A stretch of 64,000 nucleotides of DNA from assembly GCA_963718845.1 (NCBI GenBank), contig CAVRAD010000001.1, forward strand, positions 47,434 to 111,433, in the 5' to 3' direction. Shown here one piece after another: positions 32,366-50,834 of the stretch. The first letter of the stretch is position 1. The number at the start of each line of letters is the position of its first letter. This DNA comes from an uncultured Acidobacteriota bacterium (GTDB taxonomy: Bacteria > Acidobacteriota > UBA6911). Below the pieces are notes generated by a model. It worked only from the letters and a program-made list of their open reading frames with translations. It was not told the origin of the DNA and ran no database searches. Both the position numbers and the translations under genes were made by a program.

Positions 32366-32829
32366 GGGAACCCTCCTGTACCACTTCTATTAGATACCCG
32401 AATGCCGCCGTCTCTGTGGCCTTGGGATGGATGAAAAAAACCATCGTGCCGCGCGATCCTTTCCGCGGAGCCTTGTCGACGAGCTTGAATCCGTTCTCTT
32501 TCAGATAATCGAACGCCTTCTGTATGTCCGCCACGCGCAGGGCGACGTGCGCCAGTCCGCCGCGCCCGCCATTCTTCTCAATCTGCTTGGCGACCGGCGA
32601 TTCCGCATTCAGCGGCTCAATCAGCTGCACCAGGTTCGGGCCGGTGCCCACCTGCAGCAGCACTTCCCGCACCTGATCCGTGCCCAGCACATCCTCGCGG
32701 TGCATTTTCTTGGAATCCCATGGTCTTGTAGGCGTGGACATGGGCTTCGAGTTCACCGGGTTTGACCGATATGGCCACGTGATCGAAAAATAGAAATCCG
32801 GGTACTTGTTCCAGTTGTGAATTCATCAT
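32358..32829 (-). CDS. mce: Methylmalonyl-CoA epimerase (VOC/glyoxalase fold); apparent frameshift ~32705
   Basis: N-terminus FDHVAISV..LEAHVHAYKTMGFQE (ORF 32617), then VLLQVGTGPNLVQLIEPL...GGLAHVALRVADI...FFIHPK (ORF 32358). ATGA overlap with the upstream gene. Confidence 0.75.
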
Positions 32830-33212
32830 TCAAACTCCACTACCACCTGTCCCGACTGGACACCGTCCCCCTCTTTTACCGGGATGGCGGCAATCTTGCC
32901 GGGATTGGGGGCTGTAATATTCGTTTCCATTTTCATCGCTTCGAGCACCAGCATCACATCGCCGGTCTGCAGGCTCTGTCCCACCTGCGCCGCCACGCGT
33001 ATCACGATACCGGATACGGGGCTGCGGCATACCTTGGCTTCGTCTACCGGTTTATTGTCGCCGGCTGCGGGAGCGGGCGCGGGCGCTGCCGGGACTCGCA
33101 CAGCCGCGGACCCGACCGGGATGCCGCGTAGAATAGGTGAGGGCGCCGTGGGTTCTACGGCTTCAACTTCGACTTCATATGTTTTTCCATCAATAGCAAT
33201 ATTCAATTTCAC
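32826..33212 (-). CDS. Biotin carboxyl carrier (1.3S-type biotinyl subunit)
   Basis: GTG at 33212 follows GGAGG. C-terminal biotinylation motif VLEAMKMETNI. Ala/Pro linker. Confidence 0.8.
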   Translation of the reverse strand: MKLNIAIDGKTYEVEVEAVEPTAPSPILRGIPVGSAAVRVPAAPAPAPAAGDNKPVDEAKVCRSPVSGIVIRVAAQVGQSLQTGDVMLVLEAMKMETNITAPNPGKIAAIPVKEGDGVQSGQVVVEFE

Positions 33213-33220
33213 GGCGCCTC

Positions 33221-33578
33221 CTAAGTATGCAAGTAGTGGGACGCCTGGATCGACGCGCGCCCCTGCTGCGCCCACGCATGTGAGCTGAGCAATCGAATCT
33301 GTTTTATGCGGATGCGAACTCCCAGGTACGCACCCAGCGCGGCCGAAATGGCGATCAGTTCTTCTTCCGTAATTTCTTCTTTTTGCGGTTCGGGCTGCGG
33401 CGCCGTTTCCAGCGCCACCGGGACCGGAATCGTTTCCAGGGCGGCGGGCTGCTTCGGTCCGGTCGCTTCCAGCTGCTCCACTCGCTCGGAGAGCGCCAGC
33501 GAGTTGAGCCTGAACTTTTTCCAGCAGTTCCGCCAAACCCTGCATTGTTATTTTGTTTGTCTTTGTTATTTTGGCCAT
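33221..33578 (-). CDS. Small OadG-like/decarboxylase-gamma-like subunit; apparent frameshift ~33500
   Basis: ATG at 33578 has a GAGGGGAG RBS (MAKITKTNKITMQGLAELLEKV). Continues in ORF 33221 (EEITEEELIAISAALGAYLGVRIRIKQIRLL..AWAQQGR). Confidence 0.5.
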
Positions 33579-33592
33579 ACTCTCCCCTCGCT

Positions 33593-35161
33593 CTATAGCG
33601 GAATCAGGCCATGTTTCTTGGCCGGTCTCAGCTCGCGCTTGGTATGCACATATTCCAATGCCTGCGTTATGTGATGCCGCGTCATGGAGGGCTCGATAAT
33701 GGCGTCCACCAGCCGGCGACCGGCGGCTACGTATGGATTGGAGAAAGTCTCGCGGTACTTCTCGATCAGTTCCTTGCGCTTGGCCGCTTTATTGTCCGCT
33801 TCCTGAATCTCCTTACGGAAAACGATTTCAGCCGCGCCTTCCGCGCCCATTACGGCAACTTCCGCCGTTGGCCATGCGTATACGCGGTCTGCGCCCAGGT
33901 CTTTGCCGCACATTGCCAGGTACGCGCCGCCATAGCTTTTGCGCAGGTTCACCGTGATCTTCGGGACCGTCGCGGCGGAGTACGCGAACAGCATTTTTGC
34001 TCCGTGGCGGATGATGCCGCCGTACTCCTGCTGTACTCCCGGCAAAAAGCCCGGCACATCGACGAAAGTAAGCAGTGGGACATTAAAGGCGTTGCAGAAA
34101 CGGATAAAGCTCGCGGCTTTGTTGGAAGCGTTGATGTCGAGCACGCCTGCCTGCACCGAGGGCTGATTTGCAATGATCCCCATAGAGCGGCCGGAAATGC
34201 GCGCAAATCCGATGACGATATTGGCGGCATACCCTGCCTGCACTTCCAGGAAATCGGCAAAGTCCACCACTCGGGTGATTACCTCGCGCACATCGTATCC
34301 CTTTTTAGTATCCGTGGGCACCACCTTGTCCAATTCCGGATTGGCTTCGAAATTGGGATCGCCTTCCACTTGCGGCGGATCCTCCAGGTTATTGGACGGC
34401 AGGAAGCTGAGCAGCTTCTGGCATATTTCTATGGCATGGTGGTCGTCTTCGGCGATGAAGTGAATCACGCCGGAATAGGCCATATGCGATTCCGGGCCGC
34501 CCAACTGTTCGGCGGTCACACTCTCGCCGGTAACGCTCTTGATTACCGACGGACCGGTGATGAACATCTGGGCCTGACGGGTCTGGATGATGAAGTCGGT
34601 TAAGGCGGGGCTGTAGGCTGCGCCGCCTGCGCAGGGGCCGCAGATAAGCGATATTTGCGGCACTGCGCCCGAGAGCATCACATTCGTATAAAATACTTTT
34701 CCGTAGGCTGAAAGGGAATCAATGCCTTCCTGAACACGAGCGCCTCCCGAATCGTTGATGAAGATGAACGGCGATCCTGTCTTCAAGGACTGCACCATGA
34801 TCTCGGCCACCTTAGTGGAATGGACTTCGCCGGCCGAACCGCCGGAGACAGTGAAGTCCTGGCTGGCAAGATGCACCAGCCGGCCGTGGACCGATGCTGC
34901 GCCGGTCACTACGCCGTCCGCGGGAAAACTTTTTCCGGCCATGCCGAACAGCACTGCGCGATGCTCGGCGAACAGGCCGGCTTCTTCGAAACTGCCCGGA
35001 TCCACCAACTGATCAATTCGTTCTCTGGCGGTCAGCTTGCCTTCTTCATGCTGCTTTTCCTGTTTGTCGGCCCCGCCTCCCTGCATGGCGCGGTCCCGCC
35101 GCTTCCGCAATTCCGTGATCTTTTCCTGCATTGTATGTATAGCCATTGTTCGTGACTCCAT
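33593..35161 (-). CDS. Carboxyltransferase (propionyl-CoA carboxylase beta / transcarboxylase 12S type)
   Basis: 522 aa. KLTARERIDQLVDPGSFEE, GGARVQEG and PQISLICGPCAGGAAYSPALTDF are typical of acyl-CoA carboxyltransferases. The start may be the ATG at 35146. Confidence 0.85.
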   Translation of the reverse strand: MESRTMAIHTMQEKITELRKRRDRAMQGGGADKQEKQHEEGKLTARERIDQLVDPGSFEEAGLFAEHRAVLFGMAGKSFPADGVVTGAASVHGRLVHLASQDFTVSGGSAGEVHSTKVAEIMVQSLKTGSPFIFINDSGGARVQEGIDSLSAYGKVFYTNVMLSGAVPQISLICGPCAGGAAYSPALTDFIIQTRQAQMFITGPSVIKSVTGESVTAEQLGGPESHMAYSGVIHFIAEDDHHAIEICQKLLSFLPSNNLEDPPQVEGDPNFEANPELDKVVPTDTKKGYDVREVITRVVDFADFLEVQAGYAANIVIGFARISGRSMGIIANQPSVQAGVLDINASNKAASFIRFCNAFNVPLLTFVDVPGFLPGVQQEYGGIIRHGAKMLFAYSAATVPKITVNLRKSYGGAYLAMCGKDLGADRVYAWPTAEVAVMGAEGAAEIVFRKEIQEADNKAAKRKELIEKYRETFSNPYVAAGRRLVDAIIEPSMTRHHITQALEYVHTKRELRPAKKHGLIPL

Positions 35162-35163
35162 TT

Positions 35164-35292
35164 AGGTTCCAGGTTCCAGGTTGCAGGTTCCAGGTTGCAG
35201 GTTGCATGTTCCATGTTTCATGTTAAAAACCGCACTCTGTAACCTGTAACCTGCAACCTGTAACTTGTAACCTGTAACTTGTAACCTGGAAC
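35164..35292. repeat. Tandem-heptamer hairpin: AGGTTSC units followed by inverted GTAACCT units
   Basis: aggttcc aggttcc aggttgc aggttcc aggttgc aggttgc atgttcc atgtttc ... gtaacct gtaacct gcaacct gtaactt gtaacct gtaactt gtaacct. Lies between two co-directional minus-strand genes. Confidence 0.8.
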
Positions 35293-35332
35293 TAATTATT
35301 AGTACGAAATCCCGCTAGAAATGCGGATTAGT

Positions 35333-36850
35333 CTATGCCGGCGAAACTGTTACCCTGTGCGTGGTCTCGTTCAGTTTCACATCATACGTGATTGTTTTGC
35401 GCACCGGACCTTTGCCGCTGTCCTCTGACGAGCCCGGCGCGCCTTGTGATGGAGACGCGGCCTGCTGCGCGTTCGGGTCCTTGCCCAGGTTTTTCGGGCC
35501 TGCGTCGCGCGTGGAAAAAAACTTAGGAGCCACCTGAGGAAACATGGCAAAAGTGAGCACGTCTTCATCCGAGCCATTGCAGCCGGGCAATTCCAGCGCC
35601 GCTTCGCGCAGATCCTGCCACTCCGGCTTCAGGAGATCCGCGGGACGGCACGTGATCGGAGGCTTGCCAGTCTGTTTGGCTGCCAGATCGATGACCTCTG
35701 GATTGCGCGGCCCTATGGTTTCACCGTAGTAACCCAGCATCAGGTCGGCAAACTCCCCGGTCATGACTTTGTATTTTCCCATCAGCACATTGAAGACCGC
35801 CTGCGATCCCACAATCTGGCTCGATGGCGTAACCAGCGGCGGGAAGCCGGCGTCCTTGCGCACTTTCGGAACCTCGGCCAGCACTTCATCCGTTCGGTCG
35901 TCCGCCTTCTGCTGTTTTAGCTGGCTTTCCATGTTGGAGAGCATGCCGCCGGGAATCTGGCTTTCGAAGATCTCAGTTTCCACGCCGGTGATGTTCGAGA
36001 TGAATTCCTTATAGCGAGGGGCTATTTTCAGGAAGTGCTTCTTGATTTTCAGTAGCCGTGCTTTGTCGATCTTTGTATCGAAACCCGTGCCTTCGAGCAT
36101 TTCCACCAGGCTCTCCGTGGGATTGTGGCCGGGCCCGAGGCTGAGGGCGCTGATCGCCGTATCGACTCCATCCGCGCCGGCTTCGATGGCTTTCATCAGG
36201 CTGACCATGGTGACGCCGGTGGTGGCGTGCACGTGGACCTGAACGCGCACATTCTGTCCGCAGGCGTCCTTGATTCCACGGACAAGATCATAGGCCGGTT
36301 GCGGTTTGAGAAGCGCCGCCATGTCCTTGATGCAGATGGAATCGCAGCCCAGCGCGACGAGTTTCTCTGCATGCTCCACGAACTGTTTGATGGTATGCAG
36401 CGGGCTGGTGGTATAGGAGATGGCGCCCTGGGCATGTTTGCCTGTCTTCTTCACGGCGGCAATGGCGCGCTGCAAGTTGCGAATGTCGTTGAGCGCGTCG
36501 AAAATCCGGAACACATCGATGCCGTTGTTGGCCGCTTTTTCGACAAAGCGATCGACGACCGTGTCTTCGTAATGGCGGTAGCCGAGCAGGTTCTGGCCGC
36601 GCAGCAACATCTGGAGCCGCGTGTTCGGCATGAGCTTGCGGAAGGTGCGCAGGCGTTCCCATGGGTCCTCATTGAGAAACCGGATGCAGGAGTCGAAAGT
36701 CGCGCCTCCCCAGCACTCAACGGACCAGAAACCCGCCTTGTCTATATCCTCACACGCAGGGGCCATATCCTCGGTCGCCATACGCGTCGCCATCACACTC
36801 TGATGCGCATCGCGGAGAATGAGTTCGGTAATGTCAATTATCTTGGGCAT
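35333..36850 (-). CDS. Pyruvate/oxaloacetate carboxyltransferase (transcarboxylase 5S / OadA-type) without C-terminal biotinyl domain
   Basis: MPKIIDITELILRDAHQS..., HVHATTG, and no AMKM motif at the C-terminus. ATG at 36850 follows AAGGAAGA. Confidence 0.85.
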   Translation of the reverse strand: MPKIIDITELILRDAHQSVMATRMATEDMAPACEDIDKAGFWSVECWGGATFDSCIRFLNEDPWERLRTFRKLMPNTRLQMLLRGQNLLGYRHYEDTVVDRFVEKAANNGIDVFRIFDALNDIRNLQRAIAAVKKTGKHAQGAISYTTSPLHTIKQFVEHAEKLVALGCDSICIKDMAALLKPQPAYDLVRGIKDACGQNVRVQVHVHATTGVTMVSLMKAIEAGADGVDTAISALSLGPGHNPTESLVEMLEGTGFDTKIDKARLLKIKKHFLKIAPRYKEFISNITGVETEIFESQIPGGMLSNMESQLKQQKADDRTDEVLAEVPKVRKDAGFPPLVTPSSQIVGSQAVFNVLMGKYKVMTGEFADLMLGYYGETIGPRNPEVIDLAAKQTGKPPITCRPADLLKPEWQDLREAALELPGCNGSDEDVLTFAMFPQVAPKFFSTRDAGPKNLGKDPNAQQAASPSQGAPGSSEDSGKGPVRKTITYDVKLNETTHRVTVSPA

Positions 36851-37162
36851 GTCCGGTTCTTCCTTAAAGAATTTAGTTGATCCATCGTTTTCTTCCTGAG
36901 TCTTAGGGTGGGCCATGATAGAAGGCGCCAGCTCTGAAATCCCATCTCCGGCAACGCGGAAAATGTGACTCGGGCAAAATTGGTAATTCTTAGCCTAAAG
37001 CGCCTCGAATTCAAGACCCAATACGCGAGATAAGTGAAAGAAAGACATGATTTATTTCTGCCGCTAAGTTGTTGATCTGATTAAATAAGCTGTTCCGCTC
37101 TGTGGAAAGTGCATGGCAGGGACGTCCAGGTAACACAATGTAGTAGTGCAGCCTAAAGAGGC

Positions 37163-37876: not shown

Positions 37877-39030
37877 CTATGCCAGGAGTTGCTGGGCTCG
37901 AATCAAACGATCCTGGACCCGCACTCCATTCGGACACTGAATGGCGCAGGTTTCACAGTCGATGCAACGCATATCACGAACTTCTCTTGCAAGATCTCTG
38001 AAGCTTACGACCGCATGATGGTAGTCGCCGTAGAAATCATGATACGAGAGAAAACGCAGCACGTCCGACACGGGCATGCCCTTCGGACACGTCCCTTTGC
38101 ACTGGTAACACATGCGGCAGTAATCCGGCCGGATCTGCTCGTTTATTAAGCCCAGTAATTTCTCATCCGCTGGAGTATAGGATTCCGACATCGCCCGGAA
38201 ATTCATTTCGAGCTGTGGAATGGTCCGCATATTGGGGACGGTTGTGCCGATTGCCGGATTCTGTAAAACCCATTTAATGCCTGCGACCGGGCCGTCACCG
38301 TTTGGCCTGGCGGGCGGGTTTTCGACGCTTTTTAAATTAAAGCCCGACAGCGCGACCACGACTTTCATGGCAATGACGCCGATGCCGGCTTCATGGAGCT
38401 TGGCAATTGCCGGTTCTCGGTAGCGTCCGCCGATCGGGAAAACTGTAGGTAGTCTGAATGACATCGAATTTCCCGGTTTTCAGAATGAAGGGAACCATGT
38501 TGTTGATATCGTGGCAGCTGAAGCCGATGAAGCGGGCTTTCCCCGATTTCTTGCATTGTCTCCAAAGCCTCGATCGCCTCATCCGGGATTTGGGCCGGGT
38601 TATCCCTTCCATGCAGATGCCAGATGTCGACGTGATCCGTGCCAAGTACTTGAAGACTCGTGTCCAAGTCCTCCAATATGTGCGCTTTCTTCGTCCTGCC
38701 GGACTTGCTGGCGATTATTATCTTGTCTCTTTTGCCTTTGATCACACCGGAAAAGATTTTTTCGCTGTCGCCGTAATCGCGGGAGGTGTCGAAGTAATTA
38801 ATGCCCATGTCAATGGCGCGCGCGACAACATCCGGAACCGGCACGAATCCTATGCCGTAACCGACCCCGGTAACCTTTAATCCTGTTTTTCCCAAAGTCC
38901 GATATACGACCTGGGGAGCGCTCGAACTCCCCTGAAATGCCGAGTGCAAGCCGCCCGATGAGACAAGCCCTACAGCAGGCAGAGCCAAGCCCGCCTGCAG
39001 AAACTTCCTTCGTGATTGATGGGAATCCAT
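37877..39030 (-). pseudogene. Decayed paralog of the Tat aldo/keto reductase-FeS protein (two frame breaks ~38550 and ~38440)
   Basis: ORFs 38365, 38391 and 37877 read consecutively and are colinear with 8295-9428 (SRRKFLQAGLALPA; KARFIGFSCHDINN; FPIGGRYREPAIAKLHEAGIGVIAMK; CRMCYQCKGTCP...CIDCETCAIQCP). Confidence 0.7.
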
Positions 39031-39260: not shown

Positions 39261-42215
39261 TTGCAGGAGCCGGGCTTGAGGGATCGCTGCACAACCAGTT
39301 CTTCAGGATCACTCCTGGCTGCGGCATTGTGTGTCCTCGCGCTTTTAAGTGCAGCTTCATTCGACCATCTCCTTGCGCAAGACAGGGGGCAGAAAAACGA
39401 ACAGAAGCCACGGAATGGCAAGGAGCCGCCACGAGATCTGAGGCTTCCCGCAGTGGGGAGTGAAAGGGTCTGTCTGGGCTGCCACGGACCCGAGAAGGAT
39501 CCGGCAATGGTGCGTGAGGGACGAACGAGTTCCATCGAAATCAATGGCAAGCGCTTTGCCAAGTCAGCCCACGGTTCTCACGATGTTGGCTGCGTAAAGT
39601 GTCATTCAGAATTGCCCCACAAGTTCGGCCTGCCGCTGGTGAAGTGCGGTTCCTGCCACGAGAAGGAGGCGAACGTCTATAGCCGGAGCATCCACGGCAA
39701 ACAGCTTGCGGCCGGGGATAAGCTGGCGCCAACCTGTCAGGAATGCCATGGGGAGCATTACATCGTTCCGCTGCGTGATCCCGAATCGCCCGCTGCCCCT
39801 CTCAATATTTCACAGATGTGCACCAAGTGCCACGCGGAGGGACAGCCCGTGCAACGGGCTGCGAACATCCCCAAAGAACAGCTCCAGAAGCGCTACACCC
39901 AGAATATTCACAAAGACGGATTGTTCAAGCAGGGATTGGTCGTAACGGCGGTCTGCACTAGTTGCCATACGAGCCACAGCGTTCTACCCCATACGGATCC
40001 GGCCTCGAGTATTTCCAGACAAAACGTCGTTCGGACCTGCATGAAGTGCCACGGAATGATTGAGGTGGTTCATCGCAAAATCGTCCGAGGCACGCTATGG
40101 GAAAAGGAACCTCACAAAGTACCTGTCTGCGTGGAGTGCCACTCTCCACACGAAGCACGCAAGGTCCTTTATGACACCCAGATGGCCAACTCGGATTGTC
40201 TTGCCTGTCATGGCAAAAAGGATCTTCGAGCCGCCAAGGGCGGGCCGTCTCTTTTTGTGCGTGCAGAGGAATACGCGGCATCGATTCACGGGCGGAAAGT
40301 AGTCGCCTGCACGCAGTGTCATACTGGTGTAACTGTCACGGCGGAACGTCCCTGCTCGACTATCGAAAAGAAGGTGGATTGCTCCATCTGCCATGAGGCT
40401 GAGGTATCCAATTATTCTGCGGGAATCCACGGCCGATTGCACGCCAAGGGTGATACGAAAGCCCCGTACTGCACCGACTGTCACGGCACGCATGAAACCC
40501 TGGAGCACTCGACCAGCGCGGATTCGCCGGATTCTGTGAAGCAAATGGTTTACGAGTCTCCGACCTTTGCACTCAAAGTGCCCCTACTTTGCGCCCGGTG
40601 CCACCAGCGGGGCGGCCAGGCCGCAGTGCGCTATCAGGGCGCAGTGAAAAACATGGTCGAGAACTATGCCGAGAGTATCCATGGAAAAGGGCTTCGGGAG
40701 AGCGGCCTGACCGTGACGGCTACCTGCGCCGACTGCCACACCCCGCACAAAGAGCTCCCACGGAGTGATCCCCAGTCCACTGTTCATCCGGACAACATCG
40801 CCAAGGTCTGCGGCAAGTGTCATCAGGGAATCGAGGAGCAATACGCCGGGAGCGTCCACTCGCGCGCCAATAACACCGAATACAAGCGCCTACCGGGCAA
40901 GCCGGACCTGCCTGGATGCAGCGACTGCCACTCATCCCATGAAATTACCCGCGCCGACGCCACAGGCTTCAATCTCGCCGTTATGGACCAATGCGGCAAC
41001 TGCCACAAAGATGTGGTCGAGACTTACCTGGACACCTATCACGGAAAGGCGTCCAGGTTGGGAAAGGCCAACGCAGCGAAGTGTTATGACTGTCATGGCG
41101 CGCACGATATTCTGGCGCTAAACAATTCCCGGTCACGACTCAGCCAGGGAAATATTGTAGAGACCTGTGCAAAATGCCACCCGCGGGCCCATCCCGGTTT
41201 TAAAGGCTACTTGACCCACGCGACCCACTACGATTCCAAAAAGTATCCGGCGCTTTTCTTCGCGTTTTGGGGCATGACGGGCCTGTTGGTGGCAACCTTT
41301 GCATTCTTTGGCTGCCATACCCTGTTGTGGCTGCCCACGTCGTTGAGAATGCGCAAACATGCAAAAGAGATTTTGGCTGGCAGCGATCCAAATGCGAAGC
41401 ATGTCCTGCGGTTTACAATCCGCCAGCGAGCCATGCACCTGATCATGATTATAAGTTTCTTCGGGTTGGCCCTTACGGGGATGACGCTGAAGTTCAGTTA
41501 CATGGCCTGGGCGAGATTTATCGCCTGGAGCATCGGGGGCGCCGCATTTGCGGGTTACATCCATCGGGTGTGCGCTGTAGCGATGTTTAGTCTGTTCGCT
41601 TATCACCTCTGGGAATCATTCCAGCTGTATAAAAAAAGTGGCAAGAAACCCATAGATTTTCTGCTGGGTCCCGACACCATTGTGCCGACTCTGGCAGACG
41701 CCAAGGAGTTCATGGCGACGTTCAAGTGGTTTCTGGGCCGGGGGCCGCGGCCCCAATACGGGCGTTGGACCTATTGGGAGAAGTTCGACTACTTCGCGGT
41801 CTTTTGGGGTATAGGAATCATTGGCTCTACCGGCTTGATGTTGTGGTTTCCAGAACTGACCACCTGGATTCTGCCGGGATGGGTCCTTAATGTGGCGACC
41901 ATCATTCACAGCGACGAAGCGCTGCTGGCAACGGGATTTATCTTCACGATTCATTTTTTCAACACTCACTTCCGCCCCGAGAAGTTTCCCATGGACTTCG
42001 TTATGTTGACCGGCAGGGTGCCGCTGGAGGAATGGAAGCACGAAAGACCTCGCGAGTATGAGGATAGGGTTGCTACGGGAAAGATGGAGGAAATCCTCGC
42101 CGATCCAATGCCGACAGTCGTAACGCATGTGGGAAGGTTTTTCGGTATCCTGGCATTAGCGATCGGTTTGAGTCTCGTTGCCCTAATTCTTTACGCCATG
42201 CTGTTTGGTGGCTGA
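39261..42215 (+). CDS. Fusion of a 19-haem c-type cytochrome with a C-terminal FdnI/HydC-like cytochrome b membrane domain (CbcL-like architecture)
   Basis: 984-aa ORF. Signal-like SLLAAALCVLALLSAAS. 19 CXXCH counted. Last ~340 aa hold 5-6 hydrophobic helices with conserved His (AMHLIMIISFFGLALTG, YIHRVCAVAM, IIHSDEALLATGFIFTIHFFNTHF). No ATG at the 5' end; start is TTG at 39261 or 39276. Confidence 0.85.
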   Translation: MQEPGLRDRCTTSSSGSLLAAALCVLALLSAASFDHLLAQDRGQKNEQKPRNGKEPPRDLRLPAVGSERVCLGCHGPEKDPAMVREGRTSSIEINGKRFAKSAHGSHDVGCVKCHSELPHKFGLPLVKCGSCHEKEANVYSRSIHGKQLAAGDKLAPTCQECHGEHYIVPLRDPESPAAPLNISQMCTKCHAEGQPVQRAANIPKEQLQKRYTQNIHKDGLFKQGLVVTAVCTSCHTSHSVLPHTDPASSISRQNVVRTCMKCHGMIEVVHRKIVRGTLWEKEPHKVPVCVECHSPHEARKVLYDTQMANSDCLACHGKKDLRAAKGGPSLFVRAEEYAASIHGRKVVACTQCHTGVTVTAERPCSTIEKKVDCSICHEAEVSNYSAGIHGRLHAKGDTKAPYCTDCHGTHETLEHSTSADSPDSVKQMVYESPTFALKVPLLCARCHQRGGQAAVRYQGAVKNMVENYAESIHGKGLRESGLTVTATCADCHTPHKELPRSDPQSTVHPDNIAKVCGKCHQGIEEQYAGSVHSRANNTEYKRLPGKPDLPGCSDCHSSHEITRADATGFNLAVMDQCGNCHKDVVETYLDTYHGKASRLGKANAAKCYDCHGAHDILALNNSRSRLSQGNIVETCAKCHPRAHPGFKGYLTHATHYDSKKYPALFFAFWGMTGLLVATFAFFGCHTLLWLPTSLRMRKHAKEILAGSDPNAKHVLRFTIRQRAMHLIMIISFFGLALTGMTLKFSYMAWARFIAWSIGGAAFAGYIHRVCAVAMFSLFAYHLWESFQLYKKSGKKPIDFLLGPDTIVPTLADAKEFMATFKWFLGRGPRPQYGRWTYWEKFDYFAVFWGIGIIGSTGLMLWFPELTTWILPGWVLNVATIIHSDEALLATGFIFTIHFFNTHFRPEKFPMDFVMLTGRVPLEEWKHERPREYEDRVATGKMEEILADPMPTVVTHVGRFFGILALAIGLSLVALILYAMLFGG

Positions 42216-42231
42216 CACCAGAGGCGACACA

Positions 42232-44350
42232 ATGATAATGCCACGGCGACGAAGGAGATGGATTTTACGGGCTGGAATTTTTGTCTTCTTCTCCCTGCTA
42301 CCTTTATCAGAACCGAGTTCAGGCCAGACACAGGAAAGAGGAGCTGACCAGCGTTGCCTGAACTGCCATGAACAAAAGCATATTACCGCGCTCTCCCGCG
42401 AGGAGCGGGAGATGATGGTCGTTGTGCCTGAGCCCGGTCTCCCGGAGCGGAAAAATCCTGCGAGCCTGCTATGTCGAACAAAGTATTCTTGCGCAAGGAT
42501 TCCACAGCAATGTGACCTGCGAGCAGTGCCACACGGGGGTGGAATCGCTTCCTCATGCCGCCCGTTTGTCCGAGCCCCAGTGCGAAACCTGCCACCAGGA
42601 GCAAGTCGCGGAGGTTTCGCGAAGCATGCACGCAAAGGTGATTCGGACCTCGGAACCGATGCCCCCTCGATGCTGGGATTGCCACGGTGCTCACGAGATT
42701 CGTCTTCAAAGCAAGGTGAATCCACTAGAAAAGATCAGGGTCTGTGCTTCCTGCCACCAGACGTATTCGGGCCAGATGGCGGGCCTGAAGAATGGAGGCG
42801 TGCTGGTGCGATCCTACCTGGACAGTGTTCATGGCCGGAGAAAGCCCGGCACTGCGGAGGTAGGAGCCACCTGCGAGGATTGTCATGGTCACCATGAGAT
42901 CCTGCCTGTTCAAGACCCTCGCTCCAGGGTTCATCGTTTAAACATCCCGGAAACTTGCGGGCGCTGCCACGCTGATATTTTGAAAGAGTTCGAGTCGACG
43001 GTTCACGCGGAGGTGGCGCGCCGGAATGATCCGTCGGTCCGGGCCGCCCTTTGCAACGATTGCCACACGGCGCATGCCATTACGCATACCAATACACCCG
43101 AATTTATGCTGGATATCGTCAGCGAGTGTGGGGTTTGTCACAAGGAGCTCTATCGGACCTATCGGGAGACGTATCATGGCCAAGTACAGCAGCTCGGCAG
43201 CGTGCGTGCTGCACGGTGCAGTGACTGCCACGGGACCCACAACATACGGCGCCCGTCAGATCCTAAATCATTATTGTCGGCCGCCAACCGTCCCGAGACC
43301 TGTTCGCGCTGCCATCAGGAGATCAAAACAATGGCGGCATCGGGCCGCGAAAATTTCGTCGCCTACCACCCGCATGCAGACTTTCGCGATGGGCAAAAAC
43401 ATCCCGCGCTGCTTTTAATCTGGCGTTTTACTCTTATTGTCGGTGCTATCCTGCTGGCGATCTGGGGCTTGCACTGGATGGGGTGGCTCAATCGGGATTT
43501 GCGGAAGAGATCGGATCTGTCGGAGGATGGACCAGTGCATGCAATGCTCCGGTTCAAGGCGCTGCATCGCTGGACCCATCTTCTAGCGACCGCCTGTGTG
43601 CTGGGATTGGCTCTGACGGGCATGCCCCTGAAGTTCAGCCGTCAGCCCTGGGTTGTGGCCTCAATGGCGCTTTTCGGCGGGCCTGACGGAGCGGCTCTCC
43701 TTCATCGCCTGTTCGCAATTTTTTTGGTTGGCATCGGCCTGTTTTATGGATTCTATGCCTTGATTCTGCGGGGAGATCGAAAACAGCCGCTCCGGAAGCG
43801 GATCGTGGGGCCCGATAGCCTGGTGCCGAGCATCAGGGACATTCGACAATTTATAGGAATGTTTCGGTGGTTCACCGACCGGGGAGGCCGTCCGGAACTG
43901 GACCGCTGGAGCTACAGGGAAAAGTTCGACTACTGGGCCCTAGTGATCTCGGTGAACGCCCTTGCCTTTTCCGGTGCGTTTCTCTGGTTCCCCACTTTTT
44001 TCGCCAGATTCCTCTCCGGTTACTGGTTTAACGTGGCCATGGTTGTCCACAGCTATGCCGGACTGATGGCCATAGGCTGCGCCATCATGATCCATCTTTT
44101 CAATACCAGCCTTCGTAGGGAAGGATTCCCTGTGAACGATGTGATGCTCACAGGACAGCTTTCCGAGAAAGAGCTCCAAGAGGGGCGATCCGCACAGTAC
44201 GCGCGTCTGGCCAAAGAGGATACGCTGAGCCAATTGAGAGTGCAGCCAGCGTCAGACCGAAAGCGAAAGATTGCATTTTATGGTACGGTCGCATTACAGA
44301 TTCTGGGATTAGGAACTTTTATATTAATCGTTATTGCAGCGTTGATATAG
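42232..44350 (+). CDS. Fusion of an 11-haem c-type cytochrome with a cytochrome b-like membrane domain (paralog of the C-terminal half of 39261); apparent frameshift ~42468
   Basis: ATG at 42232 gives MIMPRRRRRWILRAGIFVFFSLL...CLNCH in the frame of ORF 42205, then continues in ORF 42422. 11 CXXCH in total. Membrane domain is colinear with the preceding gene (ALHRWTHLLATACVLGLALTG, REKFDYWALV, VVHSYAGLMAIGCAIMIHLFNTS). Confidence 0.8.
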
Positions 44351-44368
44351 TTATCGATAGGAAACACA

Positions 44369-45787
44369 TTGAGACCTGGCTGCTACAAATTGGAGATTGG
44401 ATCTTTGATTCCTTGGGTAGTTGTTCTTCTTGTCACGTTCTTCAGGCTTCCCCTTGCAGCTGCCCAGACAGGGCCCCAGGAGCGTCCAACCGCGCCAACG
44501 AAGAATTGCACGGCCGGTGGTTGCCATTCGAACGTGACTGCTTATCCGGTTCTGCATGGGCCTATGAGGGCGGGTGCCTGCTCCGGATGCCATAGGCAAA
44601 GTGACGCAGTAAAGCACACATTCCAACTGACCCGTGAAGGAGGCAGTCTCTGCCTTTTTTGTCACAAGCTCGAAACCGGCAAGTATTCCCATAAGCCAAT
44701 GACGGAAAAGACCTGTCTCGAATGTCACAATCCCCACGGCGGGGAGACGCGCCCGCATCTGCGTGCGAAGACTACGCGGGCATTGTGCGAGAAGTGTCAT
44801 GCAAAGACGATCAAGGGAAAGATGGTGCACAAACCGGTTGCCGATGGGGGGTGCCTGGGGTGTCACACTGCGCACGTTTCGAATTATCCGAAATTGCTTC
44901 GTCAGGAACCGAACACAGTGTGTCTGGACTGCCATGTAGTCTTCGCCAACCGGATAAAGCAGGCGCGATCCATTCACAAGCCCATGGGGGAAGGTTGCCT
45001 GAAATGTCATAACGCACATGCTTCGGATAGGCCGAAATTGCTGGGAAAACCGATGCGAGAGCTTTGTTATTCCTGCCACGAGAACATTCGATTGACTGTG
45101 GAGCATGCTAAAGTCCGCCACGGGGCACTTGAGGAAATTCGGGAGTGCATGAACTGTCACGACGCCCACGCGACCCGTTATTCGAAGCTTCTCCGGAACA
45201 ATGCGAGAGCCCTATGTCTGAAATGCCACGACAAGGAGATCACGACCTCTAAAGGGAAGATCCGGGACATGAGCAAGATACTTGCGTCCGGCAAAAGCCT
45301 TCACGTGCCGAATACAGCAAACGAGTGCAGTGCATGTCACCAGATTCACGGAGGAGACCTGTTCGATCTGCTGAACAAGGAGTATCCTTCCGAGTTTTAT
45401 TCGTCGTTCCGGGAAGAGAACTACGCGCTTTGTTTTTCCTGCCACGATCCCAGGCTAGCCGTAGTCTCGAAGACAACGAATCTGACTGGATTTCGGAATG
45501 GCGATATGAATTTGCACTCCGTGCATGTCAACCAGAAAACCAAAGGCCGAACCTGCCGCGCTTGTCACGAAATACACGCGATGGATCGGGAACAGTACAT
45601 CCGGGATTCCGTGCCCTTCGGCGACTGGATATTCCAAACTGGATATGCGAAAACGGCCGCGGGCGGATCCTGTGCCCCGGGCTGCCACCAGCATTTCTCC
45701 TATGATCGACAGAATCCCGTGAAGTACGAGCAGGATTCGGGGAAATCAGGAGAGGGTGGCAAAGAGGGAATCCAAGGTGAAAAATAA
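44369..45787 (+). CDS. Periplasmic multihaem cytochrome c (13 CXXCH + CX4CH + CX3CH), c7/c3-type repeats
   Basis: 472 aa. N-terminal hydrophobic segment. Repeating H.P.....C..CH..H motif. TTG start at 44369. Confidence 0.85.
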   Translation: MRPGCYKLEIGSLIPWVVVLLVTFFRLPLAAAQTGPQERPTAPTKNCTAGGCHSNVTAYPVLHGPMRAGACSGCHRQSDAVKHTFQLTREGGSLCLFCHKLETGKYSHKPMTEKTCLECHNPHGGETRPHLRAKTTRALCEKCHAKTIKGKMVHKPVADGGCLGCHTAHVSNYPKLLRQEPNTVCLDCHVVFANRIKQARSIHKPMGEGCLKCHNAHASDRPKLLGKPMRELCYSCHENIRLTVEHAKVRHGALEEIRECMNCHDAHATRYSKLLRNNARALCLKCHDKEITTSKGKIRDMSKILASGKSLHVPNTANECSACHQIHGGDLFDLLNKEYPSEFYSSFREENYALCFSCHDPRLAVVSKTTNLTGFRNGDMNLHSVHVNQKTKGRTCRACHEIHAMDREQYIRDSVPFGDWIFQTGYAKTAAGGSCAPGCHQHFSYDRQNPVKYEQDSGKSGEGGKEGIQGEK

Positions 45788-45834
45788 AAAGTGACTGTCA
45801 CTGGAGCGTCTTATCGCGTTTGGAAAAGAGCGAG

Positions 45835-47481
45835 ATGAATCGAATGCGCTGGAAATCTATCCGATCATTCGGAATTAATCGTTGGCTAGTGGGCATGTTG
45901 CTTGTGTGCGCCTGTGGACAAGAATTTGCGCGCGTTGCGTATAGCCAGGACAATTCAATGATCAAGCTGATTGAGACCCTGAGCGATACCAATCGCGATC
46001 TTCGTGATGAAGCCGTTAATGCTCTGGTAAAGCTGGGCCCGGCCGCCATTGAATCTCTCGTTGCCGCGCTGAAAAGCAAGAATGATGTTGTTCGACAGGA
46101 GGCTACCGGCGCATTGGGGCGTATACGGGATCCACGAGCGGTGGAGCCCCTCATCGGCGCTTTGAAGGATGCGGATTCTATTGTCAGCTATAGAGCAGCC
46201 GACGCGTTGGGGGACATCAAAGATCCGCGATCAGTGGAACCCCTCATCGCCGCCCTGAAGGATAAAAAACTGCTGTTGAGAACTCAGGCTGTCGCCGCCT
46301 TAGGGCGTATCCACGATCCCCGTGCGGTGGATGCCCTCATTGCTGCTCTGAAGGATGAGGATCCCCTCGTGAGCTATAGGGCGGCCGATGCATTGGGGGA
46401 ATTCAAAGATCCACGTGCGATAGAACCGCTTATTGTCGCGCTGAAGGATAAAAATCTCCTACTGAGAACTCAGGCTGCCGGCGCGCTTGCAAAGCTGGGT
46501 TCGGCAGTCGTTAATCCTCTCGTCGTTGCGCTGAAAAGCCATGCGGATGATGTTGCTCGCAGGGAAGCCGTCGGCATTTTGGGGCGCATCCACACTCCTG
46601 ATGCGATTGATGCCCTCATCGCTGCTCTGAAGGATTCAGATTCCATCGTGAGCTCGAGAGCAGCCGATGCATTGGGGGAAATCAAAGATTTGCGCGCTAT
46701 AGAACCCCTTATTTCCGCCATGAGGGATAAAAATCTCCTGCTGAGAACGCACTCTGCCGCCGCACTGATAAACTTGGGCCCGGCAGCCCTTGATCCTGTC
46801 GTTGCTGCGGTAAGAAAACAGGATGATGATGCTCTCCGGGAGGTTGCCACCGCCTTAATACACATCAAAGATCCGGATGCGGTTCAATCCCCGACGGCAA
46901 GCATGACGGCTCAAGATAAGGATGTTCGCTCCGCAGCCTCCAAGAAATCGGATAGCGTCAAAGATTCCCTTGGGGACCAACCCCCCGTGGACAGGCTTCT
47001 GGTTCTTAAAAAGAATCCGCTACTGAAACAGAGGCTGTTGGAATCGGAGCAGGCGGTATCGGAACCAGTGTCCATGCAGATCAAGATCCTAAGGAGCGGA
47101 GATATACGCGCCAGGGCCGACGCTGCATTTCAGTTGAGGAAAATGGGGCCGTCGGCCCAGGGGGCGATCTTGGTGCTGATCGAGACGCTGTATGATCCGA
47201 AAATTGAAGAACAGAATACCCATTGGGGAGAGGGAGTTCAGAACATAACCACGATTTCCCCGGCCATGGAAGCTGCCGAGACGCTTGTGATGTTTGGAAA
47301 TCCGGCGGTAGAGCCGCTGGTAGCGGTTCTAGAGGATTCCAATCCGAGTGTCCGGAAATCAGCCGCTCGGATACTAAGACAAATCAAAGATCCGCAGACC
47401 GTGGAACCCCTTATCGCCGTTTTGAAAGATGCGGATCCGGATACCCGGCAGATGGCAATCCAGGCGTTAGGTCGAGATTAA
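45835..47481 (+). CDS. Secreted HEAT-repeat (PBS-lyase-type) protein
   Basis: Signal-like MNRMRWKSIRSFGINRWLVGMLLVCACG. More than 10 repeats of A..ALG.I.DPRAVEPLIAALKD.D..VR. Confidence 0.8.
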   Translation: MNRMRWKSIRSFGINRWLVGMLLVCACGQEFARVAYSQDNSMIKLIETLSDTNRDLRDEAVNALVKLGPAAIESLVAALKSKNDVVRQEATGALGRIRDPRAVEPLIGALKDADSIVSYRAADALGDIKDPRSVEPLIAALKDKKLLLRTQAVAALGRIHDPRAVDALIAALKDEDPLVSYRAADALGEFKDPRAIEPLIVALKDKNLLLRTQAAGALAKLGSAVVNPLVVALKSHADDVARREAVGILGRIHTPDAIDALIAALKDSDSIVSSRAADALGEIKDLRAIEPLISAMRDKNLLLRTHSAAALINLGPAALDPVVAAVRKQDDDALREVATALIHIKDPDAVQSPTASMTAQDKDVRSAASKKSDSVKDSLGDQPPVDRLLVLKKNPLLKQRLLESEQAVSEPVSMQIKILRSGDIRARADAAFQLRKMGPSAQGAILVLIETLYDPKIEEQNTHWGEGVQNITTISPAMEAAETLVMFGNPAVEPLVAVLEDSNPSVRKSAARILRQIKDPQTVEPLIAVLKDADPDTRQMAIQALGRD

Positions 47482-48500
47482 TGACCCTCGGGTTGTTGAC
47501 GCCCCTCATCGCGGTGCTTGCGGATAGTGATGCCCAGACTCGAAATATCGCGATTCAAACATTAGGCATAATCCGGGAGTTCAAGACTGTGGATCTCATA
47601 ATATCCGCTCTCAAGGATGAAAATCCCATGATACGGAGCGGCATCGCTCAGGCATTAGGGCAGATCAGAGTTCCACGCGCGGTGGACCCTCTCGTTGCCG
47701 CTTTGAAGGATAGCGATCGCAATACGAGGCTAATGGCAATCCAAGCATTAGGGCGGGCAAAAGATCCGCGCGCGGTGGAACCCCTCCTTGCTACTTTGAG
47801 GGATAACGATCTTGACATCAGGCTTACGGCGATGCAATCCCTGGGACAGATCCAAGACCCGCGTGCCGTGGAATTCATCATCGCGTTTCTAAGAGACAGC
47901 AATCCCATTGTCCGGCGCATGGCGGTTCAGGCATTACGGCAAATCAAAGACCCGCGCGTTTCGAAGTCCCTTATCCCGGTCCTTGCGGATGAGGATGCCC
48001 AGACTCGTGCCCTGGTCATTCAAGCATTAGGGAACATCAAGGGTTCCCAGGCTTTGGATCTCCTCCTGGCCGCTCTAAAGGATGCGCAACCCTTGATTCG
48101 GATTGGCGCATTCCAGGTTCTAGGGCAGATCAGGGATTCCTATGTTGTAGAACCTCTCATGGTTATTTTGAAAGATTTAAATCCCGAAACCCGGAATATG
48201 GCAGCCCTTGCATTAGGGCGGATCCGTGATCCGCGCGCCGTGGAATCCCTCATCGCGGCTTTGAATGATAAAGATCAGAACGTACAGATATCAGCCGTGA
48301 GAGCATTGGGGGAGATCAATGATCCGCGTGCTGTGGAGCCCCTCATCGCTGCCTTGCAGGGTAAGCCAGAGGTTGTTCGTACTGAGGTGGCGTGGGTTCT
48401 AACAAAACTCACCGATAAGGATTTCGGCATTAATTATAATCTCTGGAAACAGTGGTGGAGTTCCCAAGCGCCGGTCGGGCTTAATACCTCAAAACCATAA
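47481..48500 (+). CDS. HEAT-repeat protein: either a separate gene (TAATG stop/start overlap) or the C-terminal half of 45835 if the junction is a frameshift
   Basis: About 10 further repeats of the same consensus. The third frame across the junction reads NDPRVVD, which fits the repeat consensus, so the boundary is ambiguous. Confidence 0.65.
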   Translation: MTLGLLTPLIAVLADSDAQTRNIAIQTLGIIREFKTVDLIISALKDENPMIRSGIAQALGQIRVPRAVDPLVAALKDSDRNTRLMAIQALGRAKDPRAVEPLLATLRDNDLDIRLTAMQSLGQIQDPRAVEFIIAFLRDSNPIVRRMAVQALRQIKDPRVSKSLIPVLADEDAQTRALVIQALGNIKGSQALDLLLAALKDAQPLIRIGAFQVLGQIRDSYVVEPLMVILKDLNPETRNMAALALGRIRDPRAVESLIAALNDKDQNVQISAVRALGEINDPRAVEPLIAALQGKPEVVRTEVAWVLTKLTDKDFGINYNLWKQWWSSQAPVGLNTSKP

Positions 48501-48516
48501 TAGGAAGCCTCGGTTC

Positions 48517-49797
48517 ATGCATATGGAAGGATCGGACGCGAAATATCATCGGCAAAAGGATAGCAAACGCTTCCAGCCTCGACTTGCGTACGTGCTTATC
48601 GGCCTGCTGGCATGCGTTGCGCTTTGTGGAGTGTGCGCGGCCATTTCTGCGCCCCAAAAGAATCCCCAGGCTTCCGCCGCGCGACAGGACAAGAAGCCAC
48701 ACCCCCCCCTGGCGGGCAAAGCGTGCGTCGATTGCCACGAACAGAATGTGTCGTCAACGGTGCGCTGCCTGGTGGCTAAAGAACCGTTGTGCGTACTCTG
48801 TCACGATATCCCGGATGTCGGAGGCACTTCGCGCCTGGTGAACTCAGACAATCCGCTCTGCTTCAAGTGCCATGCGAAAGAAAAATTCAAAAGCAGCTTT
48901 AGTCACGGGCCATTTGTTTTCGGGGCATGTGTTGCCTGTCACGATCCGCACGGAGGTAATGAACCACGCATGTTGCGGATTTCCGGCCGGCAACTGTGCT
49001 TGACCTGCCATAGGGACATGGATACCAGGTTCACGAATGCAAGATTTCGGCACCAGGCCTTAGCGACCGGATGCACCGAATGCCATTCCCCGCATTCATC
49101 GGAGCAGCGCTACGAGTTGAAGGCGGCCGTTCCCGTACTTTGCGCCAAATGTCACGAAAAAACTCTCCACGAACAGGAAGCGGTAAAAGTAAAACATTCT
49201 CCGGTCACAGAGGCGCCCGCTTGTATGAATTGTCATAATCCGCATCTGTCCGAGAACGATCATTTACTCCTTTCCGAGGAGCCGGATACTTGTCTGAGAT
49301 GCCACGATGAGCCCATCAAGATCGGCAAAAATGAATTGGAGCCAATGGGACAATTCCTGGCGGCGAATCCAAGGCAGCACGGGCCCATGCAAAGCAAGGA
49401 ATGCTCAGGATGCCACAAACCGCACGGGTCCTCCCATTTCCGACTCTTGACCGATGCATATCCGAAAGAGTTTTATGCTCCCTTCCAGGTATCGAAATAC
49501 GATCTCTGCTTTCGTTGCCATGAGTCCACCCTGGTGAAAGAAGAGCGCACGGCAACGTTGACTGGATTTCGAGATGGCGACCGCAATCTTCATTTTGTTC
49601 ATGTCAGCAAGGTCCCGGCAGGACGAACTTGCCGGTTTTGTCACGAGACTCACGCGAGCACTTTGCCCAAACACATCCGGGTGTTCGTGCCCTTCGGGAC
49701 ATGGAAGCTGCCGGTAGGATTTAGTCAGACCGAAAATGGCGGAAGCTGTGCGCCCGGCTGTCATGAATTAAAGAAATACGAACGGAAGGCCGGGTAA
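48517..49797 (+). CDS. Periplasmic multihaem cytochrome c (12 CXXCH + CX3CH), paralog of 44369-45787
   Basis: 426 aa. TM/signal segment LAYVLIGLLACVALCGVCAAISA. C-terminal module LCFRCH..LTGFRDGDRNLHFVHV...GRTCRFCHE.H...GGSCAPGCH is shared with 44369. Confidence 0.85.
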   Translation: MHMEGSDAKYHRQKDSKRFQPRLAYVLIGLLACVALCGVCAAISAPQKNPQASAARQDKKPHPPLAGKACVDCHEQNVSSTVRCLVAKEPLCVLCHDIPDVGGTSRLVNSDNPLCFKCHAKEKFKSSFSHGPFVFGACVACHDPHGGNEPRMLRISGRQLCLTCHRDMDTRFTNARFRHQALATGCTECHSPHSSEQRYELKAAVPVLCAKCHEKTLHEQEAVKVKHSPVTEAPACMNCHNPHLSENDHLLLSEEPDTCLRCHDEPIKIGKNELEPMGQFLAANPRQHGPMQSKECSGCHKPHGSSHFRLLTDAYPKEFYAPFQVSKYDLCFRCHESTLVKEERTATLTGFRDGDRNLHFVHVSKVPAGRTCRFCHETHASTLPKHIRVFVPFGTWKLPVGFSQTENGGSCAPGCHELKKYERKAG

Positions 49798-49877: not shown

Positions 49878-50834
49878 TTAATGCACCGTTACCGGTAGGC
49901 CAAGGGCTTCCAGTGCTTCTTTCAAGGACTGGATCTTTTCATCCGAAGGAGGTTCGGCTTCCAGAACGAGTTTGCTGTCATCGATCCGCGGGTATTTCAT
50001 AACTCCCAGGTTGTGATAGGGCAGCAGCTGAATCATGGCGACCGCCTCCCCGAGAGATTTGCAAAACAAACCGGTTGCGCGGATGCTTTCTTCCGAGTCG
50101 CTGAAATCCGGGATTACAGGAAGGCGGATCTGCATTTTTCCGCCCGCCCGCGCGATTTTGGCGGCATTCTCCAGGATCAGCCCATTCGGCACGCCGGTCA
50201 CCCGGCGGTGCTGCTCGCTGTCCATATGCTTCAGGTCGTATAAGAACAAATCCGTATAAGGCAAAATCTGTTCTACTATTTCGTATCGTGCATAGCCGGT
50301 GGTGTCCACTGCGGTGTGGATGCCGGACTTCTTCAGGCTTTTCAGTACCTGCAGAACGAACTCCGGCTGGCATAGCGGTTCTCCGCCGGAGATGGTGACG
50401 CCGCCGCCGGAGTGTTCATAAAAAGGCATATCCTTGCGCAGTCGCCGTACCAGTTCATCCACGGTATATTCGGTGCCGCAGATCACCAGCGCTTTCGCGT
50501 AGCATACGCCTGCGCAATCCCCGCAATTATTACATTGGGAGCGGTCGATATGAATGTGCTGAATGTTTTCCTGAGTGGCTGCATGCCGGACCCATGTGCC
50601 GGGAGCGATCGCTCCTTTGGGGCAGGCGCTCAGGCACTTTCCGCATTTTTCGATGCCCACGCAGCGGAGGGACATCCAGCTCAGTTGCTTATAGAACTGC
50701 TGGGATTCAGGGCTGTGGCACCAGGGACAACGCAGGGGGCACCCCTTTAAAAAGACCGTCGTGCGGATGCCGGGGCCATCCTGCACAGAAAATCCCTGTA
50801 TGTCGTAGACAATTCCCGTTAACGGCTTTTCCAT
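49878..50834 (-). CDS. Glycyl-radical enzyme activating protein (radical SAM with two extra 4Fe-4S motifs)
   Basis: 318 aa. DGPGIRTTVFLKGCPLRCPWCHSPES (CX3CX2C), then CGKCLSACP and CNNCGDCAGVC clusters. Confidence 0.9.
   Translation of the reverse strand: MEKPLTGIVYDIQGFSVQDGPGIRTTVFLKGCPLRCPWCHSPESQQFYKQLSWMSLRCVGIEKCGKCLSACPKGAIAPGTWVRHAATQENIQHIHIDRSQCNNCGDCAGVCYAKALVICGTEYTVDELVRRLRKDMPFYEHSGGGVTISGGEPLCQPEFVLQVLKSLKKSGIHTAVDTTGYARYEIVEQILPYTDLFLYDLKHMDSEQHRRVTGVPNGLILENAAKIARAGGKMQIRLPVIPDFSDSEESIRATGLFCKSLGEAVAMIQLLPYHNLGVMKYPRIDDSKLVLEAEPPSDEKIQSLKEALEALGLPVTVH

Follow-up and report, generated by a model that had tools for sequence, protein, structure and literature searches.

The stretch of DNA analysed here (hereafter the window) comprises 64,000 nt from an uncultured Acidobacteriota bacterium (assembly GCA_963718845.1, contig CAVRAD010000001.1) and bears, at 39261 to 44350 of its + strand, two adjacent genes that each fuse a multihaem cytochrome c to a membrane-bound cytochrome b. 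It is very likely that these genes, A and B, encode co-transcribed inner-membrane quinone-pool:cytochrome c oxidoreductases of the CbcL/MtrH/MtoC family, in which a chain of bis-His c haems is carried by an FdnI-type di-haem core, and that the frame break interrupting B is an assembly error. Gene A (39261..42215, + strand) encodes a protein of 984 aa with a signal peptide, a periplasmic c domain with 19 haems and, at the C-terminus, a six-helix domain of the predicted di-haem cytochrome b type. Gene B (42232..44350, + strand) encodes a signal peptide, an 11-haem c domain and a b domain of the A type, and yields 705 aa when a single surplus base (42469) is taken out; all residue numbers of B given below are those of the repaired protein. 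We were able to establish the architecture of both proteins, the conservation of their ligand histidines, their fold, the duplication of a haem module, the structure of the operon and its conservation.

Haem arrays and the duplicated module

The sequence-only reading had counted 19 CXXCH motifs in the 984-aa protein and 11 in its neighbor, and had taken the two for paralogues on the same type of membrane anchor with colinear membrane-domain peptides. Each of these observations was reproduced. A contains exactly 19 CXXCH, spread over residues 71-640, and neither CXXCK nor longer-spaced haem motifs were found in it by the motif count; shuffling its residues gave a mean of 0.11 CXXCH and a maximum of 3. 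The figure of 11 for B is reached after removal of the extra base. The peptides in question are present in both membrane domains, and repaired B (38-705) is 33% identical to A (309-982) in an end-to-end alignment (E-value = 4e-122), the b domains having the same fold. Both proteins have signal-peptide-like N-termini, and the haem domain of A is matched by the cytochrome c3/c7 domains of Pfam.

Self-alignment of A showed that residues 71-298, which hold haems 1-8 (39471..40154, + strand), are 34% identical to residues 313-561, which hold haems 9-16 (E-value = 2e-40). As B is colinear with A 309-982, its 11 haems correspond to haems 9-19 of A (residues 313-640, 40197..41180, + strand), with parallel CXXCH spacings, and the eight-haem module at the N-terminal side of A has no counterpart in B. 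By these alignments, A is composed of the eight-haem module twice, followed by three membrane-proximal haems and the b domain, and B of the module once; the gap of eight haems between the two proteins is one duplicated module.

Histidines outside the motifs are also conserved in the haem domains; in the homologue alignments, A has 18 that are invariant and two that are nearly so, and B has 11 invariant ones. Their number appears roughly sufficient for bis-His ligation of every haem in both proteins, and the nine haems of CbcL have been measured as low-spin bis-His (PMC9129911). The haem domains are electron-transfer chains, and nothing suggests a catalytic haem. The AlphaFold2 model of A has a predicted local distance difference test (pLDDT) score of 77 overall and 85-93 in the b domain. 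A Foldseek search of the PDB gave no convincing match to the c-haem chain (hydroxylamine oxidoreductase at E 0.1-0.3, template-modelling (TM) score ~0.2), as expected for haem-free models.

An assembly chimera was considered as the source of the 19-haem reading frame and rejected. Of the 120 best homologues, 105 have exactly 19 CXXCH at a length of ~940-980 aa; they come from independent JGI, ENA, NCBI and Logan assemblies, some of them on complete or megabase-scale contigs.

An FdnI-type membrane domain in a known family

The membrane domain of A (residues 661-984, 41241..42212, + strand) consists of a first transmembrane helix (TM0), a core of four helices resembling FdnI, and one more helix at the C-terminus. 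Long helices span residues 663-706, 720-744, 761-793, 838-862, 874-903 and 952-982 of the AlphaFold2 model, in agreement with the hydropathy peaks, and six equivalent ones are found in the model (pLDDT 84) of P0121, an intact orthologue 92% identical to B. Foldseek returned FdnI, the cytochrome b556 gamma subunit of Escherichia coli formate dehydrogenase-N (1kqf_C), as the top PDB match of both models, with target-normalised TM scores of 0.75 for A and 0.77 for P0121 (probability 1.0), followed by a weaker match to the hydrogenase-1 cytochrome b HyaC (4gd3_A, TM ~0.5). A solved structure of any family member was not found in the PDB, either by sequence or by fold. FdnI is also the best phmmer match of B among all PDB sequences, and four histidines of B stand opposite its H18, H57, H155 and H169. 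The proposed b-haem ligands of B are therefore H449 (43577), H491 (43703), H606 (44048) and H621 (44093), to which H726 (41436), H768 (41562), H883 (41907) and H898 (41952) of A correspond in the A/B alignment; all eight codons were verified. Conservation of these ligands, on which the assignment of haem b had been made to depend, is complete, since each of the 239 homologues in the membrane-domain alignment has all four histidines. B also exceeds the Pfam cut-off for PF01292 (Ni_hydr_CYTB; 32.6 bits against 30.1). The fold of the FdnI/HydC family and its ligand positions on helices 1, 2 and 4 are thus found in A and B alike, with haem binding predicted. In the formate dehydrogenase-N structure, H57 and H155 are said to bind the haem at the periplasmic side and H169 with H18 the haem at the cytoplasmic side, beside the menaquinone site. 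By analogy, we infer that the cores of A and B each bind two b haems, which in A would be held by H768 and H883 near the periplasm and by H726 and H898 near the cytoplasm. Between A and B, the b domains share 32% identity.

Two further histidines lie at the cytoplasmic side. One is in TM0 near its cytoplasmic end (A H686, 41316-41318; B H414, 43472-43474) and is invariant in 239 of 239 homologues. The other (A H782, 41604), close to where the second core helix reaches the cytoplasm, is His in 95% of the sequences and Tyr in B (Y505, 43745) and its closest orthologues. These positions may form part of the quinone site or may be ligands of a further cofactor.

Both A and B combine an exported multi-CXXCH domain, six C-terminal helices and a HydC/FdnI-like b domain, all of them features of the CbcL/MtrH/MtoC family, whose members usually have six helices. 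CbcL had been given in the sequence-only reading as the sole described protein of such build; this does not hold, as homologues with 3-23 CXXCH and 416-1034 aa have been listed in 15 phyla (Zhong and Shi, 2018; PMC6295460). Homology to CbcL, MtrH or MtoC ranges over 28.6-100% in that survey. Among the entries of its Table S2 are many 19-haem proteins (907-951 aa), found in Ignavibacteria, Gemmatimonadetes, Marinifilaceae SPP2, Marinilabiliales, Syntrophaceae and other groups, as well as 11-haem proteins (670-761 aa), found in Opitutus terrae, Lacunisphaera, Planctomycetes and elsewhere (PMC6295460). Compared with the 19-haem entries, A has 14-15 of 18 CXXCH intervals equal, and its homologue P0296 (E-value = 5e-126) has the same spacing as the entry OGQ81067.1. 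B shares 5-6 of 10 intervals with two 11-haem entries, the rest differing by a few residues. A and B belong to subgroups that are catalogued and experimentally untouched, and the novelty formerly attributed to them rested on an incomplete view of the literature. The 2018 survey is the only literature found on tandem or 19-haem forms; papers on Melioribacter, Caldithrix, MBNT15 and bioanodes do not describe them.

CbcL of Geobacter sulfurreducens (GSU0274) is built like A and B: its N-terminal part is periplasmic and carries several CXXCH, and its C-terminal part is a di-haem b domain of six helices in which the histidines are conserved. It has nine CXXCH and six helices (PMC6295460; PMC9129911) in 619 aa, whereas A reaches 19 haems through its duplicated eight-haem module, and PMC6295460 gives no account of a tandem A-B operon that includes a HEAT-repeat protein. 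FdnI (1KQF chain C) shares with A and B the four-helix di-haem core (TM 0.75-0.77) and the four equivalent histidines, but it is a separate subunit of 217 aa fed by the Fe-S subunit FdnH, which itself contributes a membrane helix. In A and B the donor or acceptor is instead a c-haem chain within the same polypeptide, TM0 stands where FdnI has the FdnH helix beside it, and a sixth helix and the invariant TM0 histidine are added. ImcH and the quinol dehydrogenases of the CymA/NapC/NrfH type provide the same inner-membrane link between the quinone pool and periplasmic multihaem cytochromes; however, they are structurally unrelated, without b haems or an FdnI domain, and their quinone site lies at a c haem near the periplasmic face.

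Several observations weigh against this interpretation. The PF01292 score of A (28.6 bits) falls just below the cut-off of 30.1, and none of the NCBIfam formate-dehydrogenase gamma models (TIGR01583, PRK10639) is passed, with 29-33 bits against cut-offs of 116-341. A H686, the invariant TM0 histidine, has no FdnI counterpart. The link to the CbcL family is indirect, running through the published haem spacings and not through the CbcL sequence itself, and CbcL is the only member studied experimentally, the 19-haem and B-type members being known from sequence alone. No outer-membrane porin or MtrB-like gene is present in the operon, so extracellular electron transfer is not established as the end point. 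Finally, the extra base at 42469 lies outside any homopolymer, and a recent real mutation is conceivable.

Assignment of A or B as a formate dehydrogenase gamma subunit was rejected, given the NCBIfam scores far below the cut-offs and an operon without formate dehydrogenase genes. The JGI designation "cytochrome b subunit of formate dehydrogenase" holds at the level of the domain only, and is misleading when applied to the window.

The 19-haem family is widespread. A word-indexed search gave more than 3000 homologues of A, and an exhaustive HMMER search of 1.84 billion cluster representatives gave 984 clusters at E ≤ 1e-30 and, for the wider superfamily, 3495 at E ≤ 1e-10. Scanning one genome per GTDB species confirmed at least 595 relatives, the 80 best of which are 46-57% identical to A and come from many phyla, among them Planctomycetota, Acidobacteriota, Bacteroidota, Ignavibacteriota, Myxococcota, Gemmatimonadota, Zixibacteria, Eisenbacteria, Hydrogenedentota, Calditrichota, KSB1, Omnitrophota and Elusimicrobiota; some are on complete chromosomes (CP070827.1 and OY970178.1 are complete or megabase-scale). 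Among the matches listed, the best species representative is from Phycisphaerales (57%), and the closest named relative is an Acidobacteriota metagenome-assembled genome (71%).

The 19-haem c/b fusion is among the most conserved and most widespread inner-membrane multihaem cytochromes outside the model metal reducers. What is modestly new is the operon of the window lineage with its conserved HEAT-repeat protein, the pairing of long and short fusions and two natural single-ORF (open reading frame) fusions of them; worth keeping are the module duplication behind 19 versus 11 haems, the invariant four-His core and the extra invariant TM0 histidine. An FdnI-type core with a module duplication and a shorter paralogue offers a concrete target for studying how the quinone pool is linked to the periplasm or the cell exterior in uncultured bacteria of soil, sediment and groundwater.

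In seven genomes (Acidobacteriota, Chlorobi/Ignavibacteria and Melioribacter) two genes take the place of the single 19-haem fusion, at L016 9803-12832, L020 11278-14391, L032 9989-12916, L053 9309-12479, L056 7823-10753, L069 9947-12865 and L076 9899-12844. The haem domain with TM0 is separated from the b domain by a cut in the cytoplasmic loop, always in frame, and this is gene fission mimicking the arrangement of an FdnH anchor plus FdnI. Selenocysteine at the stops was rejected, because they are TAG, TAA or TGA, none stands at a Cys position and a new start region follows each.

Electron flow and the relation between A and B

In the mechanism set out here, the binding of haem b, the site of the quinone, the direction in which electrons flow and the proteins that receive them are all inferred. 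A signal peptide would export each protein, whose periplasmic part would form a chain of bis-His c haems, 19 in A and 11 in B. TM0 would bring the polypeptide back to the cytoplasm, where the FdnI-type four-helix bundle with its two b haems would begin, and the sixth helix would put the C-terminus in the periplasm. By analogy with FdnI and CbcL, the quinone would react beside the b haem at the cytoplasmic side, either by oxidation of menaquinol or by reduction of menaquinone. Electrons would cross the membrane via the two b haems, pass along the c-haem chain and be handed to periplasmic partners, probably the cytochromes encoded by genes C and E of the same operon. A would then be a longer wire on an anchor of the kind that B has.

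How A and B divide this work allows several readings. One is that they are independent gateways, specific for different potentials or partners, like ImcH, CbcL and CbcBA in Geobacter, and we hold this for a real, if tentative, possibility. Inner-membrane cytochromes of Geobacter differ by the potential of the acceptor, CbcL being inactive above -0.1 V (PMC5322298; bioRxiv 10.1101/2022.08.31.506072), and A and B have b domains of just 32% identity. The tyrosine of B and its closest orthologues at the position of A H782 is in line with it, as is the faster evolution of B (ratio of nonsynonymous to synonymous substitution rates, dN/dS, 0.13-0.22, versus 0.07-0.09 for A), and the two similar soluble cytochromes C and E could be separate partners. 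However, the genes share one operon without a sign of separate regulation, promoter-like and terminator-like sites in the sequence scans being at chance level, and independent gateways would leave the recurrence of long and short fusions side by side, described below, unexplained.

As to direction, outward electron flow is favored with moderate confidence, because the genes of the window point to an anaerobic or facultative organotroph. CbcL oxidises menaquinol with little conservation of energy and is turned off above -0.1 V (PMC5322298; bioRxiv 10.1101/2022.08.31.506072), behavior which fits a quinol site at the cytoplasmic side. In the reverse case, which we consider unlikely, A and B would feed the quinone pool with electrons drawn from a donor in the periplasm or outside the cell, as has been suggested for MtoC of Fe(II) oxidisers, and a cytoplasmic-side quinone site would build proton-motive force. 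The FdnI fold and ligand pattern are indeed those of an enzyme understood to reduce menaquinone on the cytoplasmic side. Likewise, CbcL/MtrH/MtoC homologues occur in Fe(III) reducers and Fe(II) oxidisers alike, with no sequence feature that tells the direction (PMC6295460). Against reverse flow, CbcL, the only member studied genetically and biochemically, is a menaquinol oxidase, the glycyl-radical enzymes and the methylmalonyl-CoA pathway encoded in the window would supply electrons rather than need them, and no marker of Fe(II) oxidation, such as Cyc2 or MtoAB, was found among the Pfam-annotated ORFs, which cover part of the window.

Returning to the relation of the two proteins, a survey within 10 kb of the 19-haem gene covered 80 GTDB loci of other phyla and 85 loci in all. 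A second c/b fusion with 4-17 CXXCH (mostly 9-17) was found in at least 33 of the 80, some contigs being short, and in about 20 of these 33 it is directly adjacent to and co-directional with the 19-haem gene. No second fusion was found in 41 of the 85 loci, and a partner is therefore not obligatory. The partners of other phyla belong to a different subfamily, 25-28% identical to B over the whole protein and ~23% in the membrane domain, and B is nearer to A (33%) than to them. On these identities the fusions may be arranged into three classes: I, the 19-haem proteins, with b domains at least 50% identical across phyla; II, proteins of the B type; and III, those that usually accompany class I.

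Two natural fusions of class III with class I in a single ORF were also identified. P0009 (L005 2568-7478) is 1636 aa long with 13+19 CXXCH, 32 in total, and P0037 (L087 1008-5708) is 1566 aa long with 11+19, or 30. Each has two b domains, and the helix that ends the first half is at the same time the signal-peptide-like segment with which the second half begins.

The recurrent pairing and the natural fusions suggest a likely functional link between long and short c/b fusions; as evidence of physical association, the pairing is weak. That A and B form a membrane hetero-oligomer, for example a periplasm-spanning wire with a side branch, is in our opinion rather doubtful, and the periplasm-spanning role of A derives from haem counts only. 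Their genes are 16 nt apart in one operon, and the pairing is kept in four loci of the window lineage and probably in an Acidobacteriota metagenome-assembled genome. The frequency of second fusions in other phyla (33 of 80) points the same way, as do P0009 and P0037, which are independent fusions and topologically consistent, the last helix of the first half ending in the periplasm. FdnI, moreover, is trimeric in the crystal structure of formate dehydrogenase-N. Nevertheless, 41 of 85 loci have no second fusion nearby, the partners in other phyla and in the fused proteins are of another subfamily (25-29% to B) with no bearing on B, and co-transcription is equally compatible with independent enzymes. 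A bolder extension, which we regard as decidedly improbable, is that the long (19-haem) and short (9-17-haem) fusions make up a conserved two-component module, a wire anchored in the inner membrane and reaching across much of the periplasm, assembled with a second entry or branch at the quinone pool; it would have arisen repeatedly, with subfamily III or with a B derived from A, and would sometimes be a single polypeptide of 30-32 c haems and four b haems.

In other phyla, too, the genes beside the 19-haem gene are of a respiratory kind. A NrfH/ImcH-like membrane cytochrome of ~500 aa is found in 16 of 88 loci (e.g., L030 1311-2828), and two different kinds of quinone-pool cytochrome are thus often encoded together. 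Small tetrahaem cytochromes occur in 15 loci of other phyla, and further neighbors are NrfD, Rieske/cytochrome b and a haem-containing histidine kinase with a sigma-54 regulator.

The frame break in B, the operon and the window

In the window B is read in two frames. The upstream frame, from the ATG at 42232, encodes the signal peptide and the first haem motif (CLNCH), and the ORF at 42422-44350 encodes the other ten CXXCH and the membrane domain. A single frame correction near 42468 had been proposed to join them, and DNA alignments with L001 (69% protein identity) and L086 (93% DNA identity) place the extra base at 42469 of the + strand (AGCCTG[C]TATGTC). The repaired reading PASLYVEQS aligns without gaps with PAALFVDQS and PASLFVDQD, and the resulting protein of 705 aa with 11 CXXCH agrees with the intact orthologues (705-706 aa, 11 motifs). 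The break is most likely an assembly indel error and B one functional gene rather than a pseudogene, because at least six genes of the window are broken, P0121 is intact and dN/dS of B against its L086 counterpart is low on both sides of the shift (0.17 before, 0.23 after). In L086, the 93% identical relative, A and D are broken and B is intact. Breaks in different genes of the window and of L086 point to an indel-prone assembly, not to gene decay. The L004 contig, 97% identical to A, ends 18 codons before 42469.

It is very improbable that B is a genuine pseudogene or is expressed by programmed frameshifting: besides the position of the extra base outside a homopolymer run, this could draw on frame 0 staying open for 140 codons more, but there is one indel only, all 11 CXXCH and all four ligand histidines are intact, dN/dS is low before and after the shift, the window and L086 each have several frame breaks in different genes, and the orthologues in L001, L002 and L086 are unshifted at that site. 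Programmed frameshifting was rejected, as 42469 has no slippery or stop-stimulated shift site and the orthologues are read straight through it. For annotation of the window, B should be entered as one gene, not two, and the label "formate dehydrogenase cytochrome b subunit" misleads.

A and B open a run of five + strand genes, A-B-C-D-E, over 39261-49797, with intergenic gaps of 16, 18, 32 and 16 nt. The order A-B-C-D is kept in every contig of the window lineage with enough sequence (L001, L002, L003 and L086). An Acidobacteriota metagenome-assembled genome probably pairs the A and B types as well, P0006 and P0148 being both reported on its longest contig of 11523 nt. Gene C (44369..45787, + strand) encodes a secreted multihaem cytochrome with 13 CXXCH and two CX3-4CH, matched in Pfam by six copies of Paired_CXXCH_1 and by the MtrC/MtrF domain II/IV. 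Gene E (48517..49797, + strand) encodes a second one of similar build, with 12 CXXCH and one CX3CH. C and E flank D, both end in a CAPGCH motif, and both match in part decahaem models of the DmsE/MtrA type and domain II/IV of MtrC. Gene D (45820..48500, + strand) encodes a HEAT/PBS-lyase-like repeat protein (HEAT_2, HEAT_PBS in Pfam) of ~890 aa with a lipobox-like N-terminus (…LLVCAC…). It follows C in L001, L002, L003 and L086 and is confined to the lineage of the window (5 of 88 loci); it could act as a scaffold or in the handling of haem or cytochromes. D is split by a frameshift near 47475, where tblastn of the intact L001 and L002 orthologues changes frame.

With B and D, the broken genes of the window include a pyruvate formate-lyase (PFL)-like glycyl-radical enzyme (20315-22126, break near 20330), two methylmalonyl-CoA mutase subunits (28753-30943 and 30940-32365) and an aldo/keto reductase-ferredoxin fusion (37877-39030). 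Two PFL-like glycyl-radical enzymes are encoded at 49878-53473 (- strand) and 19713-22126, one of them beside a radical-SAM activase. A methylmalonyl-CoA pathway cluster at 25938-36916 comprises a CoA transferase, MeaB, the mutase, a carboxyltransferase, a biotin carrier and an oxaloacetate-decarboxylase-type subunit. Together, the glycyl-radical enzymes and this cluster suggest an anaerobic, propionate-type fermentative metabolism. The window also encodes xanthine-dehydrogenase-type enzymes and a sulfatase. Finally, the aldo/keto reductase with a C-terminal 4Fe-4S dicluster domain is present in two copies (8295-9428 and 37877-39030), and the second, frame-broken one lies divergently just upstream of the cytochrome operon, a place that it also occupies in L086.

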